A stretch of DNA of 64,000 nucleotides from Candidatus Peribacteria bacterium RIFCSPHIGHO2_01_FULL_55_13 (lineage in GTDB: Bacteria > Patescibacteriota > Gracilibacteria > Peribacterales > Peribacteraceae): positions 50,464 to 114,463 of the forward strand of contig MFXS01000004.1 in assembly GCA_001788925.1 (NCBI GenBank). The letters run 5' to 3'. The position numbers were made by a program, and so were the translations under genes. This document shows, in pieces, positions 1,996 to 58,599 of the stretch. Under the pieces are notes generated by a model, which ran no database searches, was not told the origin of the DNA, and was given only the letters and a program-made list of their open reading frames with translations. How positions within the stretch are numbered: position 1 is the first letter of the stretch; each line of letters opens with the position of its first letter.

Positions 1996-2064
1996 CGATT
2001 TGCCATTGGCCATTTGCGATTTGCCATTGAAAAATGGCAAGTGGTAAATGGCCAATGGCAAATC
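1996..2064. repeat. 7-nt-periodic repeat module, inverted pair (GCGATTT/GCCATTG units)
   Basis: Arms 1996-2028 and 2034-2064 are about 26/31 complementary; exactly fills gap between convergent stop codons at 1995 and 2066. Confidence 0.85.
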
Positions 2065-2065
2065 A

Positions 2066-5541: not shown

Positions 5542-5561
5542 CGCGGTTTATACTAGCATCC

Positions 5562-15180: not shown

Positions 15181-15186
15181 AGTGTT

Positions 15187-15254
15187 GGATGGCTAAATGG
15201 CTAAATGGTTAGTCCACATCTATAGCATATAACCATTTAGCCATTTAACCATTC
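15187..15254. repeat. 8-nt-periodic repeat module, inverted pair (ATGGCTAA units)
   Basis: Arms 15187-15212 and 15231-15254 nearly perfectly complementary; fills gap between two minus-strand genes. Confidence 0.85.
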
Positions 15255-15260
15255 AGCTCC

Positions 15261-16127: not shown

Positions 16128-16132
16128 GAGAT

Positions 16133-16214
16133 AATTATGAATTAGAAATTAGAAATTAGGAATTAGCAATTATGTCTCTATCTCGCCAATTGCTAATTCC
16201 TAACTGCTAATTGG
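16133..16214. repeat. 7-nt-periodic repeat module, inverted pair (AATTAGA/AATTAGC units)
   Basis: Arms 16133-16171 and 16188-16214; lies in divergent region between M50 protease and rpmB. Confidence 0.85.
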
Positions 16215-16481: not shown

Positions 16482-16757
16482 TCATCTGGAGAATCTCCTA
16501 AAGACACTTGTGCCGCGATAGGGTTCCGTCTTTTTCATACACTCACGCTTCGTCATCCCTTTCTTGCCCGAACATCTGATCGCACGTTCCTGGTTGCGCA
16601 TGCAGGTACTTTTGCTTGCGCCTTTGAATTCGTTGCAGCGGTAATTAGCCGCCGGAGCCGCGTGATAGGTGGCCGCTTCCACAGAGGCAATCCTGGTGAA
16701 CGCCATGATCACTGCAAGTATAAGGAAGAGGGTGCGCATAGATCTATTGTCGCGCAT
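16482..16757 (-). CDS. small secreted Lys-rich protein with two C-x10-C units
   Basis: Signal peptide; CNEFKGASKSTC and CSGKKGMTKREC. Confidence 0.5.
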   Translation of the reverse strand: MRDNRSMRTLFLILAVIMAFTRIASVEAATYHAAPAANYRCNEFKGASKSTCMRNQERAIRCSGKKGMTKRECMKKTEPYRGTSVFRRFSR

Positions 16758-16815
16758 TTTCTTCCCTACGCAAAACGCCCCCCGGAGGAGGCGTTTTGAA
16801 GGAACACTCAGTGTA

Positions 16816-17775: not shown

Positions 17776-17786
17776 GGACCAATTAT

Positions 17787-17855
17787 GAATGCGGAATTCG
17801 GAATTCGGAATTGATTTTTCCTATGATTCCGAATTCCGCATTCCGAATTCCGAAT
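17787..17855. repeat. 7-nt-periodic repeat module, inverted pair (GGAATTC/GGAATGC units)
   Basis: Arms 17787-17812 and 17825-17855; in divergent region between arfB and the TPR membrane protein. Confidence 0.9.
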
Positions 17856-17866
17856 ATACTCCACTC

Positions 17867-19672
17867 ATGCAATTGCATCGTATCCGTTATCTTGCTGTTC
17901 CCGGATTGTTACTGGTCATTGTGTTCCTGGGATTTGGTCATTCTCTTTTCCAGGACTTCGCGCCAATCGATGACACGCTCCTTGTCCGTGAAAACCTCGC
18001 GATCCGTGGGCTCACGCTCGAAAACCTTCGCTATGTCTTCACGCACTTCGATCCAGAGCTCTATATTCCGCTGACATTTGTTTCGTTTCAGATCAATTAC
18101 GTTCTCGGCGGTTTGAGTCCGTTCGGATTCCATCTGGGAAATGTGCTGCTGCATGCGGCGAACACATCGTTGGTCTTTCTCTTTGTTTCACAATTGATGA
18201 ATGCAAAAAGCATAAAGGATAAAGAAAAAAGCCATTTATCCTTTTTGCTTTATCCTTTTTGCTTTCCGGCGGGCATCGCTGCGCTCCTTTTTGCGGTGCA
18301 TCCTCTTCACACGGAGGCAGTCGTCTGGATTGCCGGCCGCAAGGATCTTCTTTTCACCTTCTTCTATCTTCTTACGATTGTAACGTATCTGCGGAGAGGA
18401 AAGTGGTATTGGGTCAGTATTGTTTTCGCTTTGTGCGCGCTTCTCAGCAAAGCGACTGCGATGACACTCCCGGTGATCCTGATTCTTTTGGATTGGGTTT
18501 TGGATGATGAACGCCGGATGTCTATCAAAAACAAAATCCCGTTCTTCCTCCTCTCCATTGTTTTTGCCTTCATCGCCCTTAGCGGCAAAGAGCGCATTGT
18601 CGGCTCCACTTCCATCCTTGATACCGGCCTCGTTGCCATCCGCAGTATTGGTCATTACCTCTGGCAGATCTTCATTCCCGTTGGCTTCAGCGTCTTCTAC
18701 CAGCAGCGTGATCCGATTCTGAATGTGTATTTCGTTGTATCCCTTCTTTTTCTCGCATCCCTTATTGCTCTCACCTGGTATTTCCGCAACAGAAAGCCCT
18801 GGATAGCCTTTGGCGTCTTGTTCTACCTGATCACACTTAGTCCGACGTTCTTCAACTTCCATAAAGGATTGATCTCATTCTACGCAGTGGACCGCTATGC
18901 GTATCTTCCTTCGATTGGAATTATTTTTATTGCAGCAATGGCATGGCGTGATGTGCAGAAAAGAATTTTCCATTTTCCAGCCTTCGCCAAGGCTACGGCC
19001 GGCAGGCAATTTTCAATTTTCAATTCCATTCCTGTTGTGCTCATCGCACTCATTCTATTGTTCGTGTCACGACATCAAACGAAGGTCTGGGACACTCCCG
19101 AATCCCTCTATGCACATTCCGTTTCCGTCGATCTTGCTTCCGTTCCCGCCCGCGCAACTCTCGCCTCCGTTCTCCGCCAGACAGGTCATCCTGTTGAAGC
19201 CTTCAATGTTCTTAAAGAAGGACTCCCGTACGGCGATGATGTGAGTTATCGCCTGGAAGCAGGAAATATCTACGCAAGTAACGGGCAGATAGCGGATGCC
19301 ATCACGGAATTCACCAAAGCTTCACAGATGAAGCCCGATCTTCCTGAACCAATCTTCTCCATCGGCAATCTGGAAGACCAGCGAGGCAATAGTGATCTTG
19401 CATTGGAGTATTACCGCAAGGCCTTGGCACTGGATCCTTCCTATGTTGGGGCCCGCGTGCGCATCGCGGATATCCATATTGACCGGGGAGAACTGGCGGA
19501 AGCAGAGGAGCAGTTGATTCAAGCACTGCGATGGAATGAGAGTTCATTTGGAGCGAATGTGCAGATGTATCGGTTGAGGATGGCACAAGGGAGGGGAGAG
19601 GAGGCGGAAGTGTATTTGGAAAAGGCGAAGGCGTTACGGCCTGGAGAGGCCATCAATTCTTTAGCACCATAA
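17867..19672 (+). CDS. multi-pass membrane protein with C-terminal TPR repeats (TMTC/PMT-like glycosyltransferase candidate)
   Basis: About 11 TM helices followed by TPR-like repeats (YYRKALALDPSY); track start 17789 lies inside the hairpin, so trimmed to ATG 17867. Confidence 0.7.
   Translation: MQLHRIRYLAVPGLLLVIVFLGFGHSLFQDFAPIDDTLLVRENLAIRGLTLENLRYVFTHFDPELYIPLTFVSFQINYVLGGLSPFGFHLGNVLLHAANTSLVFLFVSQLMNAKSIKDKEKSHLSFLLYPFCFPAGIAALLFAVHPLHTEAVVWIAGRKDLLFTFFYLLTIVTYLRRGKWYWVSIVFALCALLSKATAMTLPVILILLDWVLDDERRMSIKNKIPFFLLSIVFAFIALSGKERIVGSTSILDTGLVAIRSIGHYLWQIFIPVGFSVFYQQRDPILNVYFVVSLLFLASLIALTWYFRNRKPWIAFGVLFYLITLSPTFFNFHKGLISFYAVDRYAYLPSIGIIFIAAMAWRDVQKRIFHFPAFAKATAGRQFSIFNSIPVVLIALILLFVSRHQTKVWDTPESLYAHSVSVDLASVPARATLASVLRQTGHPVEAFNVLKEGLPYGDDVSYRLEAGNIYASNGQIADAITEFTKASQMKPDLPEPIFSIGNLEDQRGNSDLALEYYRKALALDPSYVGARVRIADIHIDRGELAEAEEQLIQALRWNESSFGANVQMYRLRMAQGRGEEAEVYLEKAKALRPGEAINSLAP
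18203..18264. repeat. 7-nt-periodic repeat module, full hairpin read in frame (GCAAAAA/GGATAAA units)
   Basis: Arms 18203-18224 and 18236-18262 inside the CDS; encodes NAKSIKDKEKSHLSFLLYPFCFP. Confidence 0.8.
18963..19027. repeat. composite: heptamer arms (ATTTTCC / ATTTTCA) flanking a core related to the 25-nt element
   Basis: Core CCTTCGCCAAGGCTACGGCCGGCAGGC resembles CCCTTCGACAGGCTCAGGACAGGC; in frame (FHFPAFAKATAGRQFSIFNS). Confidence 0.6.
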
Positions 19673-20287: not shown

Positions 20288-20378
20288 GGAGAGATGGCCG
20301 AGTGGTCGAAGGCGCGCGACTCGAAATCGCGTAGGCCCCAAAAGGGTCTCGAGGGTTCGAATCCCTCTCTCTCCGCCA
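20288..20378 (+). tRNA. tRNA-Ser (anticodon CGA), CCA encoded
   Basis: Acceptor GGAGAGA/TCTCTCC, anticodon loop CTCGAAA, long variable arm, T-arm GAGGGTTCGAATCCCTC, GCCA end. Confidence 0.93.
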
Positions 20379-26289: not shown

Positions 26290-26354
26290 TTTGCCACGTT
26301 CCATTTGCGATTTACCATTTTTACAATGGCAAATGGTAAATGATAAATGGCCAA
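26290..26354. repeat. 7-nt-periodic repeat module, inverted pair (CCATTTG / ATGGCAA-ATGGTAA units)
   Basis: Fills gap between convergent stops 26289 and 26357; about 18 bp of pairing with a few mismatches. Confidence 0.85.
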
Positions 26355-26356
26355 TT

Positions 26357-28106: not shown

Positions 28107-28185
28107 AGTGGGAGCAGAGTACAGCGCTCATGATGGGGGAAGCAACTTTGTCTTACATGGGGAAACAATGATGTCTCTTTCGGTA

Positions 28186-28222
28186 TCCACTTTCTTTTGT
28201 CTCCCCGACAAAAGAAAGTGGA
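28186..28222. repeat. perfect 16-bp inverted repeat (TCCACTTTCTTTTGTC / GACAAAAGAAAGTGGA)
   Basis: Loop TCCCC; sequence related to the GGAAAGT heptamer family. Confidence 0.8.
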
Positions 28223-28385
28223 GAAAGAAAAGCGCACCGCGCGCCAATACTCCTCCGCCCGGCCCTGGGTCTCGATGGAAACGCCTCCAAGGCTTCGGCG
28301 TTTTCATCTCGACTTCCGTCCGCTGCGGCGAACGGAAAAGCAGGGCCTTCCCCAACACCCCCCGTGGCGCGCGGAACCCACCCGC

Positions 28386-36214: not shown

Positions 36215-36937
36215 CTATTTCTCCATCGCTTCCCGTATCTGCCCCTCCAGATCCGCGGCATACGGTAGACCCGTGTACTGCTTTCCATCGATGAAATATG
36301 TCGGCACCAGATTGACGCCAAGGCTGCGAAGCCAGGACTGCTGTTCTTCGATCACGGTAGTGGTTTTCTCGCTTCCGAGGCAGTCCCCGAAGATCTTTTC
36401 ATCGAGCTTCAGCTCTTTTGCATAGGAAAGGAGTGAGGCACGGTCGCTTCCGGTGCGCTCGAAGAGCAGACGGTGCATGCCCAGACCTGCATTCTGCTTT
36501 CCTGCACAGTACAGCGCCGAAGACATCTCTTTGCTTCCCGTATATTTCTTGAGCGGCAGGATTGCGATCGCGAGCCGGAGCGTCCCTGCTTCCAGAAACT
36601 GCTTCTCCAACATCGGCATGTATTCTGTGAGGAAGTCGCGGCAGTAGTTGCAGTGGTGTTCTGTGATCAGGAGCATCGAATGCGCTGCATCACGGTTGCC
36701 GAGTTCCAGGAGGCCGGAAGAAAGGAGGCGCTCGGGAAGAAGAGACCCCGTAAGGCTTTCGGGCTCCATGACTTGTTCTTCAGCCGGAGCTTCACCTTCA
36801 CTTTCGGTCTCTTGGGAAGGTTGCGGAGGCCTGTCCTGAGCATTGTCGAAGGGTTGCGAAGTTTGCGGAGTGGGCAGCGAGCAAGCGCTGAGAATGAGAA
36901 TGGCAGCCAGAGAGAAAGTGAATTTCATCATTGGCAT
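36215..36937 (-). CDS. DsbA/thioredoxin-like lipoprotein
   Basis: Lipobox ILSAC; CNYC active site (HHCNYCRDF). Confidence 0.75.
   Translation of the reverse strand: MPMMKFTFSLAAILILSACSLPTPQTSQPFDNAQDRPPQPSQETESEGEAPAEEQVMEPESLTGSLLPERLLSSGLLELGNRDAAHSMLLITEHHCNYCRDFLTEYMPMLEKQFLEAGTLRLAIAILPLKKYTGSKEMSSALYCAGKQNAGLGMHRLLFERTGSDRASLLSYAKELKLDEKIFGDCLGSEKTTTVIEEQQSWLRSLGVNLVPTYFIDGKQYTGLPYAADLEGQIREAMEK
36829..36853. repeat. 25-nt element (gene sense CCCTTCGACAATGCTCAGGACAGGC) flanked by 8-nt direct repeats
   Basis: Flanks TTGCGGAG and TTGCGAAG; read in frame as PFDNAQDR. Confidence 0.75.
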
Positions 36938-36938
36938 T

Positions 36939-36995
36939 GTAATTGCAGATTGAAAATTACAAAGCAGCTTCTGCAATTTTCAATCTGCAATTCAC
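36939..36995. repeat. 7-nt-periodic repeat module, inverted pair (AATTGCA/GATTGAA units)
   Basis: GTAATTGCAGATTGAAAATTAC / GCAATTTTCAATCTGCAATTCAC between two minus-strand genes. Confidence 0.85.
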
Positions 36996-37000
36996 TGTTC

Positions 37001-37426: not shown

Positions 37427-37477
37427 TTTCGTGAATTTTCCGCGTATCTTCCTCTGAATGCAATAGACAACAGACAA

Positions 37478-37539
37478 ATGCATAAAGCAAAAAGGATAAT
37501 GCAAAAATATTTTTGCTTTTTGCTTTATGCTTTATGCAT
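37478..37539. repeat. 7-nt-periodic repeat module, near-perfect palindrome (GCATAAA/GCAAAAA/GGATAAT units)
   Basis: In the divergent region, ending 6 nt before the wecG-like ATG. Confidence 0.9.
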
Positions 37540-37545
37540 TTCCCC

Positions 37546-38280
37546 ATGGCTTCACGCATTCCCATTCTCGGCGTTCCCATTGATCCCGTCACGATGGAGG
37601 AGGCGGTTACGTGCGTTCTGTCGATGCTCCATGGGTTGAAGCAGTGCCATGTGATGACACCGAACAACGAGATGCTCGTGGAGGCAGACCGCAATGCCGC
37701 TTTTAAAAGCGTCCTTCAGAGGAGCGATCTCAATCTCCCGGACAGCACCGGGCTTCTGTGGGCGGCTCGTAGAACAGGGGAGAGGATTCCAGAGCGTGTG
37801 AGCGGGGTGGATTTTGTGGAGAGACTGTGTGGGGCGTTGGATCAGAGTATTCCGGTGTTTTTTTTGGGGGGGAGGGGTGGAGCAGCGGAGAAAGCGGCGG
37901 AGAAATTCGGAATGCGGAATTCAGAATTCGGAATTGCAGGAGTATTTGAAGGATCTCCGAAAGATATGGATGCAGATCAGATCATCCAGGCAGTGAATAC
38001 TTCCGGTGCCAAGCTGCTACTGGTGGCTTACGGTGCGCCGAAGCAGGATCTCTGGATCGCGAAACATCTTTCGAAGATGCCTACGGTGCGTGTCGCGATC
38101 GGCGTCGGTGGTACATTCGATTTTCTGTCAGGAACGATCAAACGGGCGCCACGATGGTTGCGGTCACTGGGACTCGAGTGGTTGTGGAGACTGATCCTTC
38201 AGCCGTGGCGTATCAAAAGAATCTGGACGGCCGTCGTTATATTTCCGATGCTCGTCCTCATGTCAAAAAAGCAGAACTGA
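37546..38280 (+). CDS. WecB/TagA/CpsF family glycosyltransferase
   Basis: ILGVPIDPVTMEEAV, TPNNEML and LGLEWLWRLILQPWR motifs. Confidence 0.85.
   Translation: MASRIPILGVPIDPVTMEEAVTCVLSMLHGLKQCHVMTPNNEMLVEADRNAAFKSVLQRSDLNLPDSTGLLWAARRTGERIPERVSGVDFVERLCGALDQSIPVFFLGGRGGAAEKAAEKFGMRNSEFGIAGVFEGSPKDMDADQIIQAVNTSGAKLLLVAYGAPKQDLWIAKHLSKMPTVRVAIGVGGTFDFLSGTIKRAPRWLRSLGLEWLWRLILQPWRIKRIWTAVVIFPMLVLMSKKQN
37902..37937. repeat. 7-nt-periodic repeat module in CDS (GGAATGC/GGAATTC units)
   Basis: Read as KFGMRNSEFGIAG; same peptide as the guaA insert. Confidence 0.85.
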
Positions 38281-42356: not shown

Positions 42357-43793
42357 ATGCTTCAACGTATCCGCGAGGGGCTTACCTTGGTACTCATTGC
42401 AGTGCTGCCCTTTCATGCGTTTCTCGTTACCGTCGGGACAAAGCTCATCGCGGGGTCAGGGCAATCACCGTTGCCCGTGTTGGCGCTTTGGAAAGAGGCA
42501 GTCCTTGGGATGATTTTGCTTGTTGCTTTGGTGGAGATCTTTCGAGAGTGGAAAACGGAAAGTGGAAAGTGGAAAGTTGATGTTTTCGACATTCTGATCG
42601 TTGGGTTAATTGCCTGGTCGATCATTTTGTATTTCGTTTTCCACTTTCCACTTTCCACTTTCCACTTCGCATTCGGGTTTAAGTATGACTTCCTCCCGCT
42701 CGTTGCATTCCTGATCCTGCGGCGGGTGCCTTGGTCACCGTGGTTCATCAGCACGGCAGTAGCCGTGCTGCTAAGCGTGGGTGCGGTCGTCGCGGTCTAT
42801 GGAATCGCTGCGATATTCCTGCCGATGTCGTGGTTCACGGCGTTGGGATATTCCGATCTTCATTCCTTGTATGTCCCCGGGGGGCCGCTTGCACCGTTCC
42901 AGCAGATTGAATCGATCGGCATCAGAAGAATGCAGTCGGTAATGAGTGGGCCGAATCAGATGGGGCTGTGGCTTTTGATTCCCTGGAGCATTGCGTTCGT
43001 TGATCTTGTTCGCAGGCGGTCGTTTGCTGGTTTGCTGGTTTGCTCGTTGCTCGTTGTAGGCATTCTCCTCTCTTTCTCAAGATCCGCCTGGATCGCGGCA
43101 GCCGTCATCGGCGCAGTCGTTGCATGGAAGCATTTGTCTCGCAAACAGATGGTCATGGCTGCCTCTTTCTTGATCGTTCTTGCCGTTATTGCCGTTGCTG
43201 CATTTCCAAGCATTGTTTTACGTGCCACATCTACCACCGGTCATATTGATCGGCCTCTTCAGGCGTTGCAGATCATGAAAGAACATCCGCTGGGTCTGGG
43301 TCTTGGTTCTGCCGGCCCGGCAAGTAATCGCTTCAGCGATGCCTGTGTGGATCTTCCCGCAGGCAGCGACGCTTCATGGGCGCAGGCGCATTCGCAGCTG
43401 TGTGTGTTTGTCGGCGGCAATCAAGTCCAGCCTCCGCTCCCTTCCGGGGAGCTACGGCCGGCAGGCCAACCTGCGGATCGTACGTGCTCCTGTCCGCTTC
43501 TACCCGAAAATTGGTATCTGCAGATCGGTGTGGAGTTGGGGTGGATAGGTTTTATCCTGTATGTGACGTTGGTGCTGATGCTTTTGAAACGCTTGACGGA
43601 ATTGAAAATTGAAAATGTAAAATTGAAAAAAGAAGAATTTTCAATTTTCAATTTTCAATTTTCAATTGGTCTCGCATTCCTCGGCATCAGTATCGCCGCC
43701 CTCTTCCTGCATGCATGGGAAGACAGCGCGGTGGCGTATACGGTGTGGATTCTTATGGCAATGGGGCTTTTACTGAGAAGGAGGATCCATTGA
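42357..43793 (+). CDS. O-antigen ligase (Wzy_C)-like membrane protein
   Basis: About 11 TM helices, LLSFSRSAW loop motif, 478 aa. Confidence 0.75.
   Translation: MLQRIREGLTLVLIAVLPFHAFLVTVGTKLIAGSGQSPLPVLALWKEAVLGMILLVALVEIFREWKTESGKWKVDVFDILIVGLIAWSIILYFVFHFPLSTFHFAFGFKYDFLPLVAFLILRRVPWSPWFISTAVAVLLSVGAVVAVYGIAAIFLPMSWFTALGYSDLHSLYVPGGPLAPFQQIESIGIRRMQSVMSGPNQMGLWLLIPWSIAFVDLVRRRSFAGLLVCSLLVVGILLSFSRSAWIAAAVIGAVVAWKHLSRKQMVMAASFLIVLAVIAVAAFPSIVLRATSTTGHIDRPLQALQIMKEHPLGLGLGSAGPASNRFSDACVDLPAGSDASWAQAHSQLCVFVGGNQVQPPLPSGELRPAGQPADRTCSCPLLPENWYLQIGVELGWIGFILYVTLVLMLLKRLTELKIENVKLKKEEFSIFNFQFSIGLAFLGISIAALFLHAWEDSAVAYTVWILMAMGLLLRRRIH
42546..42670. repeat. inverted GGAAAGT arrays separated by 57 nt, all in frame
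   Basis: Arms 42546-42579 (EWKTESGKWKVD) and 42637-42670 (FHFPLSTFHFA) bracket a predicted TM helix. Confidence 0.85.
43598..43669. repeat. 7-nt-periodic repeat module, complete hairpin in frame (AATTGAA / TTTTCAA units)
   Basis: Read as ELKIENVKLKKEEFSIFNFQFSIG. Confidence 0.9.
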
Positions 43794-48680: not shown

Positions 48681-48686
48681 GAAAAG

Positions 48687-48770
48687 CACCAAATCCCAAT
48701 GACCAAACAGTGACAAGAAAAAAATAACCAGGCAATATTTTGGTGATTGCCTGGTCATTGGTACTTGGTT
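48687..48770. repeat. nested inverted repeat (CCAAATC/CCAATGA units plus AACCAGGCAAT hairpin)
   Basis: Fills the gap between convergent stops 48680 and 48773. Confidence 0.75.
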
Positions 48771-48772
48771 AT

Positions 48773-52038: not shown

Positions 52039-52488
52039 TTACCCGATAGCCTGATAATCAACAATCAATACTCCTTCGAGATGGTCTACTTCATGCTGAA
52101 CAACCCGTGCATCAAAATGCTTCAATTTCCGTTCCTGGGCCTTACCCTTCGCATCAATGTACTTGAGCGTTATCTCCACCGATCGCGGAACATCGACGGC
52201 GATTCCTGGAAGGCTCAGGCACCCCTCTTCCGCTGATTCCTTCTCTTCACTTTTCTTCGTGATTTTTGGATTGATCAAGGGAATCATCTTTCCGGAGATC
52301 AATGCGAGGCAGACGCGTTCCGTGCGGGCCACCTGCGGCGCCGCGATTCCCGCACCATCGGCGTCTTTTACCGTTTCCTGGAGGTCCTTGATCAGCTTCA
52401 GAAGCTCTTTGGTCACCTTCGGCACGCTCTTCGTCTTTTTGCGAAGGAGCGGGTGGTCTGCGCCGATGATGATGGGAAGTACGGACAA
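52039..52488 (-). CDS. def: peptide deformylase
   Basis: GAGIAAPQV, EGCLSLPG and QHEVDHLEG motifs; the TTG start lies at the edge of the repeat hairpin. Confidence 0.92.
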   Translation of the reverse strand: MSVLPIIIGADHPLLRKKTKSVPKVTKELLKLIKDLQETVKDADGAGIAAPQVARTERVCLALISGKMIPLINPKITKKSEEKESAEEGCLSLPGIAVDVPRSVEITLKYIDAKGKAQERKLKHFDARVVQHEVDHLEGVLIVDYQAIG

Positions 52489-52557
52489 TTCGGAATGAGG
52501 AATGCGGAATGCGGAATTGCTGCAACATCATAATTCCGAATTCCGAATTCCGCATTC
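52488..52557. repeat. 7-nt-periodic repeat module, inverted pair (GGAATGA/GGAATGC / GAATTCC units)
   Basis: Exactly fills the gap between the dnaQ-like stop (52558) and the def start (52488). Confidence 0.9.
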
Positions 52558-53142
52558 TTAATTTCTTGCCAATTGCTTCACTGCCGCCCGCTTCCGCAAT
52601 TCGTCCAGCGACCGGATATTGCCCTTTTCCATCATCTTCAAGAATGCCTGTGCCGTGAGGAGCACATCAGGAAGTGCGCGGTGGCGGTCTGTGGGGAGAA
52701 CAAGGCCGCAGCGCAGCGCCAGGACATCAAGGTTGTGGCGGAACTCCTGGGGGAAAATCGACCGGCTGAGGACCAGACTGCAGAGGCATTCGGGGAGATC
52801 GACGTAGCCCCAACAGAAGTCCTTTTCCACCTGCAAAAATCCCATGTCGAAGTTGGCGTTGTGGGCGAGAAGGGTCGATCCTTCGGCGAAGGTCAGAAAC
52901 TGCGGTAGTACCTGGTCGATGGTCGGAGCATTGGCCACCATCGTGTCATCAATCTTGTTCACCTGTTTGGCTTCCCACGGGATCAATCGCTCGGGATTTA
53001 CATACGTCTGAAAGGCCGTTTCTCCCTGAATAACTCCGCCTTCAATGCGAACGGCGGCGATCTCGATGATCCGGTGACCGCGCTTCGGATCGAGACCGGT
53101 CGTCTCGACGTCGAACACGGTGAAAGGAGGGAGGAAAGACAT
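52558..53142 (-). CDS. DnaQ-like 3'-5' exonuclease
   Basis: FDVETTGLDP (Exo I), AHNANFDMGFL (Exo II) and HRALPDV (Exo III) motifs. Confidence 0.85.
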   Translation of the reverse strand: MSFLPPFTVFDVETTGLDPKRGHRIIEIAAVRIEGGVIQGETAFQTYVNPERLIPWEAKQVNKIDDTMVANAPTIDQVLPQFLTFAEGSTLLAHNANFDMGFLQVEKDFCWGYVDLPECLCSLVLSRSIFPQEFRHNLDVLALRCGLVLPTDRHRALPDVLLTAQAFLKMMEKGNIRSLDELRKRAAVKQLARN

Positions 53143-54668: not shown

Positions 54669-54736
54669 GAAAAGGCAGAAAGGGTAGGAAAGGCAAAACA
54701 TGTTTTGCCTTTCCTGCCATTTCCCCCATTCCTGCC
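54669..54736. repeat. 7-nt-periodic repeat module, imperfect inverted pair (AAAGGCA/GAAAGGG units)
   Basis: Centre GGCAAAACA/TGTTTTGCC; between two plus-strand genes. Confidence 0.7.
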
Positions 54737-56624: not shown

Positions 56625-56772
56625 AAGACCCAACCTGGAAGTTTTAAGCTTGGGCCCCTTCACATGCATGTAGGCCCGCTGCTGAGCTGGAACAGCCCTC
56701 CAGGTTGGTCCTGCAATTTCGCCGCGGAAACTGCATTGTTCCCACTCTACATTGAGGATGTCCGCATACAAT

Positions 56773-56803
56773 AAAAACGGCGGAGAGTTGCTCCGCCGTT
56801 TTT
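56773..56803. terminator. bidirectional rho-independent terminator
   Basis: AAAAACGGCGGAG-AGTTG-CTCCGCCGTTTTT between the convergent DipZ-like gene and glnA. Confidence 0.75.
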
Positions 56804-56818
56804 GAAATTCCCAATTTC

Positions 56819-58321: not shown

Positions 58322-58322
58322 A

Positions 58323-58357
58323 AAAAAGGAAAAATGAAAAAGGATAAAGGAAAAATT
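58323..58357. repeat. 7-nt-periodic repeat module (GGAAAAA/TGAAAAA/GGATAAA units) abutting the glnA start
   Basis: Inverted partner at 58560-58599. Confidence 0.85.
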
Positions 58358-58410
58358 CGCTAGCGAGTCTGGCGTTGAGCGCAGCCCATTACAAACGCAT
58401 GTTCGTATAC

Positions 58411-58433
58411 AAGAATTGAACTGTTCAGTTCTT
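58411..58433. promoter_or_regulatory. candidate operator palindrome AAGAATTGAAC-T-GTTCAGTTCTT
   Basis: Perfect TGAAC-T-GTTCA core (58417-58427) in the divergent glnA/TrmB-like region. Confidence 0.3.
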
Positions 58434-58559
58434 TATCAACAATGCATCGTACGATCTTTGGCTTAGTAAAGTCTTCCTACTCACTGGTGTGTATCTTGTG
58501 CAATAAAAAACCGTCTTTGTTGTAAAAATTAATAACACCTTGCTACACTCTCAAAGTCA

Positions 58560-58599
58560 TTTATTTTTCCATTATCCTTTTTCATTTTTCCTTTCTTTC
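58560..58599. repeat. 7-nt-periodic repeat module abutting the TrmB-like gene start (inverted copy of 58323-58357)
   Basis: TTATCCTTTTTCATTTTTCCTTT is shared by both leaders in gene sense. Confidence 0.85.

Follow-up and report, generated by a model that had tools for sequence, protein, structure and literature searches.

In the 64,000-nucleotide stretch of the Candidatus Peribacteria bacterium RIFCSPHIGHO2_01_FULL_55_13 genome analysed here (contig MFXS01000004.1, positions 50,464 to 114,463; hereafter the window), a hairpin made of short tandem words spans the gap between the stop codon of a dnaQ-like gene and the def (peptide deformylase) start codon, and similar hairpin modules lie in other gene spacers. 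An earlier note on this DNA had proposed that such modules fill intergenic gaps codon to codon, donate start or stop codons and may act as generic terminators, insulators or RNA-processing sites. The locus raises the question of whether the hairpins are dedicated RNA elements or repeats that come to rest against gene boundaries. Peribacteria and other bacteria of the Candidate Phyla Radiation (CPR) have tiny genomes and no cultures, and their transcript ends and translation starts are read from sequence alone; in this genome, about one third to half of the longer gene spacers share one repeat architecture that touches stop codons or promoter boxes. Modules that act on RNA would amount to a lineage-specific form of gene punctuation; modules that are only self-renewing filler would provide a clear case of a mutational process shaping gene ends, one that supplies stop codons as well as C-terminal tails and in at least one instance has probably given rise to a start codon.

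The modules look like a lineage-wide, fast-turnover repeat class and not like purpose-built terminators. We lean towards an explanation in which word-hairpin repeats of a self-renewing class take up DNA that is free of constraint, as far as the first base that is not, and probably have a secondary use as 3' stem-loops. The genome that carries the window (G000; 1.17 Mb in 43 contigs, 97.7% complete) was compared with the same-genus genomes G001-G005, with a metagenome contig (L058) and with a 99%-identical strain (L061); the kin genomes are not independent of one another. Gene calls were home-made, with reliable stop positions and noisy start positions. Long hairpins were detected by an ungapped stem search, of which those with periodic arms form a subset, repeat arrays were called with Tandem Repeats Finder, and hairpin folds were scored as z values against shuffled sequences.

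The dnaQ-def hairpin and its turnover in relatives

The flagged hairpin and its two flanking genes are arranged as follows (ΔG, folding free energy).

52558..53142, minus strand: dnaQ-like 3'-5' exonuclease gene (RNase_T domain); its TAA stop (52558-52560) abuts the first word
52489..52557, minus strand: flagged hairpin module, taking up all 69 nt from the dnaQ-like stop to the def start; ΔG -30.8, z -4.05
52039..52488, minus strand: peptide deformylase gene def; TTG start at 52486-52488, 4 nt from the stem

The stop-to-start fit claimed for this hairpin was borne out exactly, with a 69-nt gap and the TAA codon directly abutting the module. The spacer folds as a single hairpin (-30.8 kcal/mol, z = -4.05), and none of 200 shuffles folded as well. 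In gene sense, the 5' arm reads GAATGCG GAATTCG GAATTCG GAATTAT and is followed by a loop of about 13 nt and by a 3' arm reading AATTCCG CATTCCG CATTCCT CATTCCG, with AA before the TTG; the arms can be summarised as four copies of GAATKCG facing four copies of CATTCCG (4.4 and 3.7 copies by Tandem Repeats Finder). The outermost helix takes in one base of the stop codon and two of the start codon (the U's). The two arms are homogenised separately, the 5' arm mostly as GAATTCG and the 3' arm mostly as the complement of GAATGCG, which accounts for the mismatch that recurs every 7 nt in the stem. The def start is sound, since tblastn alignments run from residue 1 onward (MSVLPI...) in more than 20 relatives, in agreement with Pfam; neither a -10 box nor a Shine-Dalgarno site lies upstream of it.

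Orthologous spacers of the same genus usually carry a module built from another word, sometimes a GC-rich hairpin and sometimes nothing. Between dnaQ and def, the word is GAATKCG in G000, AGTATTA in G002 (93% amino-acid identity) and GAGAATG in G005, a decayed CATTCTC module is present in G001 and G003, which are more distant members of the genus, and the spacer is just 6 nt long in G004 and L058. The hairpin is identical in the 99%-identical strain, and other genera have yet other words at this position. A metagenome scan for close strains yielded one near-identical strain and one G004-type contig only. The modules of G000 and G005 share the inner junction GAATTATGRT and differ in the word in all copies of both arms (AATKCGG vs AATGGAG), a combination indicating that a module already present in their common ancestor underwent concerted rewriting.

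Outside the module, the remainder of the dnaQ-def spacer measures 4-8 nt in G000, G002 and G005, against 6 nt for the empty spacer. The filled locus of G005 reads TAA-A-TTGAGAATG-GAGAATG...CTCCAT-TTG(def), and the empty one of G004 (the apparent sister of G005) and of L058 reads TAA-TTGAGA-ATG(def). On the simplest reading of these sequences, a deletion in G004 would have left the ATG of the first word as the new def start codon. No target-site duplication was found on comparing the filled G005 locus with the empty G004 locus, the sole pair examined.

We rejected a mobile element of the miniature inverted-repeat transposable element (MITE) or repetitive extragenic palindromic (REP) type because of this missing duplication at the one filled and empty pair, the differing words and the loops, which are unique at every site and unrelated even between the two GGAATKC hairpins of the window (17787 and 52488). 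A more specific scenario, in which the modules are short non-autonomous relatives of, or binding or writing sites for, a cassette encoding a PF05635 protein, meets the same difficulties: the arms would be element ends and the short-loop hairpins an empty, MITE-like form, and such a form is hard to reconcile with orthologous sites that differ in word, and hence with the lack of any single transposing sequence. The genome encodes just three such proteins, against more than 100 hairpins.

C36:20000-20490, C28:17657-18227 and C36:3457-4117, in G000: PF05635 genes ('23S rRNA intervening-sequence', Avd-like four-helix-bundle)

All three genes are bracketed by inverted heptamer arrays of the same vocabulary as the modules (GAATTAG...ATTGCTA; ATTTGCC...AAATGGC; AATGACC...TTGGTCA). 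Arms also bracket a control region of about 200 nt between glnA and a regulator gene in 5 of 5 same-genus genomes (window 58322-58599; orthologues L036, L040, L048 and L054), the arms consisting of AAAAAGG words in G000 and of AATTGAG words in each of its four relatives. The small dispersed vocabulary, the fixed array length and the intrinsic-looking polarity described below would fit a link to PF05635 as well. Taking both sides together, we regard this link as quite unlikely to explain the modules.

A genome-wide class of word-hairpins and its fit to gene boundaries

The ungapped stem search detected 173 long hairpins in the genome and none in one shuffled 118-kb contig, and 115 of the 173 have periodic arms. 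Each module is an inverted pair of arrays of about 32 nt, built from words of 7 nt and sometimes of 8 or 9 nt. Among 1154 arrays, 421 have a period of 7, 124 a period of 8 and 211 a period of 9, with a modal length of 31-33 nt or about 4.5 units. The 354 non-redundant heptamer arrays draw on just 64 canonical words, the top 10 of which make up 58%; AAT occurs in 61% of the heptamer words (22% expected). The purine-rich strand of the words contains 41% A and 27% G, and GGG is present in only 10% of words. The modules account for 836 of 6114 intergenic nucleotides in the window (14%), well short of the earlier estimate that they make up most of its intergenic DNA, and they are found in 14 of its 40 gaps of at least 40 nt. 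The corresponding genome-wide values are about 10% of intergenic nucleotides and 31-44% of gaps of at least 40 nt. Searching the 64-kb window against Rfam at gathering score returned no match to the modules, and the published account of Peribacteria genomes does not mention these hairpins (PMC4736985). The sole Rfam match in the window is a tRNA gene of the long-arm type (20288-20375, 88 nt).

The arms are strongly polarised. The purine-rich arm leads in 95 of the 115 periodic hairpins, whichever strand is read, with purine-first to pyrimidine-first ratios of 13:0 inside genes, 20:3 in divergent gaps, 50:12 in tandem gaps and 12:5 in convergent gaps; the ratio in same-genus relatives is 15:4. 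Termination should count most at convergent gaps, yet the bias is at its weakest there; the polarity therefore looks intrinsic, and we read it as a mark of module manufacture or of a start-side constraint and not of selection for termination. A bidirectional-terminator signature was rejected as its driver on the same grounds, the bias being absolute inside genes. Separately, unpaired arrays near start codons are mostly pyrimidine-rich in gene sense (23 vs 5), and leaders are generally C/T-rich; unpaired arrays near stop codons have no bias (25 vs 19), and 140 more unpaired arrays lie inside genes.

All nine hairpins named in the earlier note fold stably (z from -3.1 to -11.4). Besides the dnaQ-def hairpin, they comprise the first eight features below, to which the last, absent from the earlier list, is added.

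1996..2065, unstranded: convergent-stop hairpin of ATTTGCC / GGCAAAT words; 1 nt from either stop; pyrimidine-rich arm leading; ΔG -53.4, z -11.4
26290..26356, unstranded: convergent-stop hairpin separating rplT from a membrane-protein gene; words ATTTGCS / GGCAAAT; distances to the stops 3 and 5 nt
48681..48772, unstranded: convergent-stop hairpin whose CCAAWNN words are degenerate; distances to the stops 7 and 3 nt
15181..15260, minus strand: tandem-gap hairpin of the 8-nt word ATGGCTAA between DUF5989 and SxtJ-like small genes; z -6.8
36940..37000, minus strand: tandem-gap hairpin with AATTGCAGATTGAAAATT arms; 8 nt past a TAA; z -7.1
16134..16214, unstranded: divergent-gap hairpin of AATTAGN words; outer end overlapping the CATAAT -10 box of an M50 peptidase gene (16134-16139, minus strand)
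17787..17855, unstranded: divergent-gap hairpin of GGAATKC words, bounded by two -10 boxes; z -6.3
37476..37541, unstranded: divergent-gap hairpin of AAAGCAN words; the WecG ATG (37546) follows after 4 nt, and the other gene's start (37426) is 49 nt away; z -6.6
54678..54723, plus strand: tandem-gap hairpin of GAAAGGSWA-type words

A fit to coding boundaries within 8 nt on both sides was observed at six of the nine sites, the flagged hairpin and five more. The codon-to-codon fit proposed for the eight further sites therefore held for the three convergent and the two tandem ones, but not for the three divergent ones, where open reading frames had been called too long. At the tandem sites, about 5-8 nt separate the 15187-15254 hairpin from the coding boundary on each side, and the 36939-36995 hairpin ends 1-3 nt before the ATG at 36937 of a DsbA-like lipoprotein gene, with the same module present in G002. 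Of the divergent-gap hairpins, 16133-16214 is flush only toward the M50 peptidase gene, leaving 51 nt with a conserved promoter on the side of L28 (rpmB), whose start is 16266 by Pfam and not 16227; 37478-37539 is flush only toward WecG, the start of which is most likely the ATG at 37546. The hairpin at 17787-17855 is flanked on the left by a minus-strand -10 box (17782-17787, CATAAT-N6-ATG of an arfB-like gene) and on the right by a plus-strand one (17855-17860, TATACT-N6-ATG 17867 of a tetratricopeptide-repeat (TPR) membrane protein), so that exactly 11 nt (the -10 box plus 6 nt) are left before the ATG on each flank. Orthologues of the TPR membrane protein align from Met27 only, which places its start at 17867 and not at the ATG at 17789.

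The notion that modules donate codons stands for stops genome-wide, and no window case supports it for starts. Stop codons overlap the array or come from a word in 28 of 97 stop-side flanks. The AA of a TAA often opens the first word (T-AATTAGC, T-AATTGAA, T-AAGGTTGCG, or TAA followed by TTCG GAATTCG), and in about 12 genes words make up both the final codons and the stop, as in AATGAGC AATGAGA, which contains a TGA in frame, and AATTAGC AATTAGA, which contains a TAG in frame. The nine window sites show no stop donation beyond direct abutment. Three of the donated starts proposed in the window are artefacts of open reading frame calling, as orthologue and Pfam starts differ from them. On this evidence the starts ATG 17789 and TTG 16227 were rejected, and TTG 36976 and TTG 37513, both inside hairpins, are probably spurious. 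Modules of this kind would mislead gene callers, several hairpin-internal ATG or TTG 'starts' of the window being artefacts. We also rejected, as the main cause of the fit at stops, the idea that a stop-bearing word closes all reading frames: the proximal arm is stop-free in all frames in 43 of 97 cases, with the stop still at its edge. The share of TAA at flush stops (60% vs 45%, P = 0.08) amounts to a trend only.

Genome-wide, the periodic stem edge lies at a median of 6 nt from the stop codon and 26 nt from the start codon. In convergent gaps, 53% of the cases have flanks of at most 10 nt on both sides; the share is 25% in tandem and 13% in divergent gaps, and placing modules into random module-free gaps gives 29%, 21% and 3% (P = 0.03, 0.26 and 0.03, respectively). 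A length-weighted insertion null leaves only about 1% flush on both sides, and these statistics of module position relative to stops and starts, which the earlier note had called for, establish that the boundary fit is real and exceeds that null. At the start side, the boundary is frequently a promoter. No Shine-Dalgarno signal was detected genome-wide, and -10 boxes of the form TANNNT are most frequent at position -12 relative to start codons (13% vs 2-3% background), which together imply widespread leaderless mRNAs. Where the stem edge lies 15-30 nt from the start codon, a -10 box occurs at -14 to -12 in 14 of 19 cases; for divergent-gap genes, taken as comparison, the share is 13% when only position -12 is counted and about 27% when positions -14 to -12 are added up. 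Examples of such leaderless-type start regions in the window are 5542-5561, 16128-16139, 17776-17787 and 17855-17866, and divergent genes come as close as 20 nt to each other.

We interpret the tandem-gap fit as insertion into spacers that were already minimal, because its frequency (25%) is close to that of the null (21%). The same comparison bears on the proposal that a flush hairpin joins stop and start codons as a translational-coupling bridge, allowing terminating ribosomes to re-initiate on internal cistrons such as def. Several features are compatible with such a bridge: the genome is devoid of a Shine-Dalgarno signal, def has a TTG start and no -10 box, the helix at the foot of the stem brings the stop and start regions into pairing, the spacer without a module measures 6 nt and is of the coupling type, and a two-sided flush fit is seen in about 25% of tandem hairpins. 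That frequency is no higher than expected by insertion (P = 0.26), however, most hairpins occur in other contexts, and coupling accounts for the tolerance of a module and not for its existence. As an account of the modules it appears highly improbable.

Some modules lie outside spacers altogether. Complete word-hairpins occur inside an O-antigen-ligase-like gene (43600-43667) and inside the TPR membrane protein gene (18207-18265), where they would be translated in frame. At the three convergent sites, every orthologous spacer recovered from a relative contains a module or, in its place, a GC-rich hairpin. In G004, a GC-rich double hairpin (CGGCAGCCGTCTCGGCTGCC...CAGGCGG..CGCCTGCCG) is found in two different convergent gaps, L037 (the orthologue of 1996-2065) and L040 (the orthologue of 48681-48772), both occupied by heptamer modules in G000; it looks like a REP-like repeat in the same niche. 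Another structured spacer of the window, 28107-28385 (279 nt), is almost identical in G002, folds strongly (-118 kcal/mol) and has no Rfam match. Its right-hand 200 nt matches several other contigs per relative at 82-87% identity and is single-copy in this assembly, and it may be a dispersed element or an undescribed RNA.

Terminator, insulator and processing roles

The modules could instead be dedicated RNA elements, that is generic factor-independent terminators, insulators of per-gene leaderless units or RNase III sites. Their placement argues against this. A periodic hairpin is present in 8.5% of convergent gaps, compared with 9.6% of tandem gaps and 12.4% of divergent ones, and 13 such hairpins are found within coding sequences, whereas non-periodic hairpins (51% GC vs 38% for periodic ones) occupy 6.5%, 4.5% and 2.7%, a terminator-like pattern. 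The placement of periodic hairpins is not terminator-like, because divergent gaps are at least as occupied as the others and because of the hairpins within genes. Given leaderless-type promoters, transcription on either side would begin downstream of a divergent-gap hairpin and leave it untranscribed. The arm polarity, weakest at convergent gaps, is likewise at odds with a terminator function.

The stems comprise 25-32 bp, with an average GC content of 38% and mismatches recurring every 7 nt. Stem mismatches lack the asymmetry of G·U over A·C that would be a mark of selection at the RNA level, with no sense-strand G·U excess (49 vs 40), and no U-tract or T-run follows the stem at the nine sites. 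A terminator consensus scan of the 44-64 kb region listed none of the modules. Canonical terminator motifs are not enriched in the genome (17 vs 21 +/- 5 in shuffles), in keeping with the earlier description of a genome with few canonical terminators. GC-rich stems followed by T-runs do exist at 16740-16815 and 56625-56818 (AAAACGCCCCCCGGAGGAGGCGTTTT; AAAAACGGCGGAGAGTTGCTCCGCCGTTTTT), and the organism is evidently able to use intrinsic terminators.

Tandem-gap hairpins are also dispensable: the dnaQ-def spacer of G004 has only 6 nt, and other orthologous tandem gaps without a hairpin measure 34 nt and 1-4 nt. About 40% of convergent gene pairs have a hairpin-free gap of less than 40 nt. In favour of dedicated RNA elements, no match to the Rho RNA-binding domain (PF07497) was found in the 97.7%-complete genome, RNase III is present (C11:12642-13028), canonical terminators are not enriched, and stem edges lie close to stop codons (median 6 nt). 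RNase III cleaves stems of 25-32 bp well. The purine-first order places U-rich words (GCUUUUU, CCAUUUU) in the 3' arm on either transcribed strand. Structure is pronounced in convergent gaps, and orthologous ones hold a module in some genomes and a GC-rich hairpin in others, although a convergent gap of 40-160 nt may exist only through insertion and the GC-rich hairpin of G004 is itself dispersed, recurring in two gaps. Among gaps of 40-160 nt, to which the caveat on insertion also applies, 69% of convergent and 18% of divergent ones are strongly structured (z below -3). Balancing these observations, we consider dedicated RNA elements an unlikely primary explanation. What stands of the proposal of generic terminators, insulators or processing sites is a genome-wide class that hugs gene boundaries and may plausibly serve as 3' hairpins; the placement, the G·U balance and the missing U-tracts leave the rest unsupported.

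The reading that we favour, self-renewing repeats filling unconstrained DNA, would operate as follows. Modules would arise and be rewritten at the DNA level, presumably by slippage, conversion or template switching, and would persist wherever the sequence is free of other constraint. In a genome this compact, unconstrained intergenic DNA may amount to only a few bases, as in the 6-nt dnaQ-def spacer of G004, and arrays would extend to the first constrained base, whether this belongs to a stop codon, to a start codon or to a leaderless-type promoter's -10 box. Where a stop codon is the constraint, its AA would often begin the first word, or a word would supply the stop outright. A module following a gene is probably transcribed, and its 3' stem-loop probably damps read-through or protects the 3' end. 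The lack of a detectable Rho, of a terminator excess and of a Shine-Dalgarno signal, together with leaderless-type promoters, makes such a co-option plausible, as does the alternation of modules and GC-rich hairpins in orthologous convergent spacers; we read the 3' stem-loop role as a co-option and not as the determinant of module position. In operon-internal gaps such as dnaQ-def, the stem would keep stop and start codons side by side at its base, which may explain why an insertion is tolerated without a Shine-Dalgarno signal.

Several points weigh against this explanation. The flush fit exceeds the unweighted insertion null at both convergent and divergent gaps (P = 0.03 each), so compaction alone may not explain everything, and in gaps of 40-160 nt modules are present in 51% of convergent vs 31% of divergent ones, a comparison subject to the caveat that gaps of that size may exist only through insertion. 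The two arms change word in step and stay paired, a pattern that selection on the stem would explain equally well. Nor does simple slippage predict a small shared vocabulary or arrays of a fixed size of about 32 nt. The boundary measurements, moreover, depend on home-made gene calls with noisy start positions. On the sequence data as they stand, a primary RNA function of the modules keeps some probability. In its broadest form, for a lineage short of both Rho and Shine-Dalgarno sites and transcribing mostly gene by gene from leaderless units, the flush fit itself would be functional, with word-hairpins serving as general gene-expression punctuation regenerated by a dedicated repeat-writing activity, possibly involving the PF05635 protein. 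The hairpins would (i) end or protect the transcript after a stop codon, (ii) insulate the promoter before a -10 box and (iii) support stop-start re-initiation in operons, and the repeat-writing activity would keep the purine-first polarity and the length of about 32 nt fixed. We judge this combination distinctly improbable.

Relation to known repeat systems

Among familiar hairpins, the modules resemble intrinsic terminators in forming a stem-loop directly 3' of a gene, and their A-rich 5' and U-rich 3' polarity recalls bidirectional ones. They are unlike them in their long stems of 38% GC, the 7-nt mismatch rhythm, the lack of a U-tract and their occurrence between divergent promoters and within genes. 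REP sequences and bacterial interspersed mosaic elements (BIMEs) are short intergenic hairpins at the 3' ends of enterobacterial genes or within operons, often near stop codons, and can stabilise upstream mRNA. REPs have one GC-rich consensus, are linked to REP-associated tyrosine transposases (RAYTs) and are not made of tandem words; the modules share an architecture only and no common sequence. Classical intervening sequences lie inside 23S rRNA and are excised by RNase III, unlike the PF05635 cassettes and short hairpins described here, which lie between protein-coding genes.

By analogy of architecture, the modules are the Peribacteria counterpart of the inverted GGGAATC pairs of Xanthomonas and of the short tandemly repeated repetitive (STRR) sequences of cyanobacteria. 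The Xanthomonas GGGAATC heptamers, described alongside Nostoc GGGGAYT ones, have a preference for about four units and form 70-75 inverted pairs per genome, all 'convergent', with the purine-rich or G-rich arm leading (Rehm et al. 2015, PMC4692102). [quoted passage not shown] The modules correspond to these pairs in consisting of tandem 7-nt units in about 4.5 copies, in the leading position of the purine-rich arm and in their location at or overlapping stops; the flagged word GGAATKC nearly equals the Xanthomonas word, and unpaired arrays near start codons are pyrimidine-rich in gene sense in both. A second parallel is provided by the TAACTGA direct repeats of Beggiatoaceae, Cyanobacteria and Bacteroidetes, which are intergenic, occur in 2-6 heptamer copies, end 1 nt from start codons or overlap stops, and contain stop triplets that close all three frames (MacGregor 2015, PMC4679880). 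TAACTGA arrays are almost all direct and unpaired and use one word, with 1 indirect repeat in 170 (PMC4679880). The modules are, like these and the STRR sequences, intergenic heptamer arrays that touch start or stop codons, but inverted pairs dominate here and the word varies by site.

The present class differs from the known heptamer repeats in its many words, its dominant pairing, its lack of G-quadruplex potential and its presence between divergent genes. Where Xanthomonas uses one word, we found 64 canonical heptamers as well as 8- and 9-mers, most of them A/T-rich and unable to form G-quadruplexes. About 60% of the arrays are paired, many are translated in frame within genes, and modules are not under-represented between divergent genes (12.4% vs 8.5% in convergent gaps). 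The host, too, is different, being a CPR bacterium with a 1.2-Mb genome. The purine-first polarity and the length of about four units are nevertheless shared with the heptamers of Xanthomonas and cyanobacteria, which by analogy suggests a common mechanism behind heptamer repeats across phyla.

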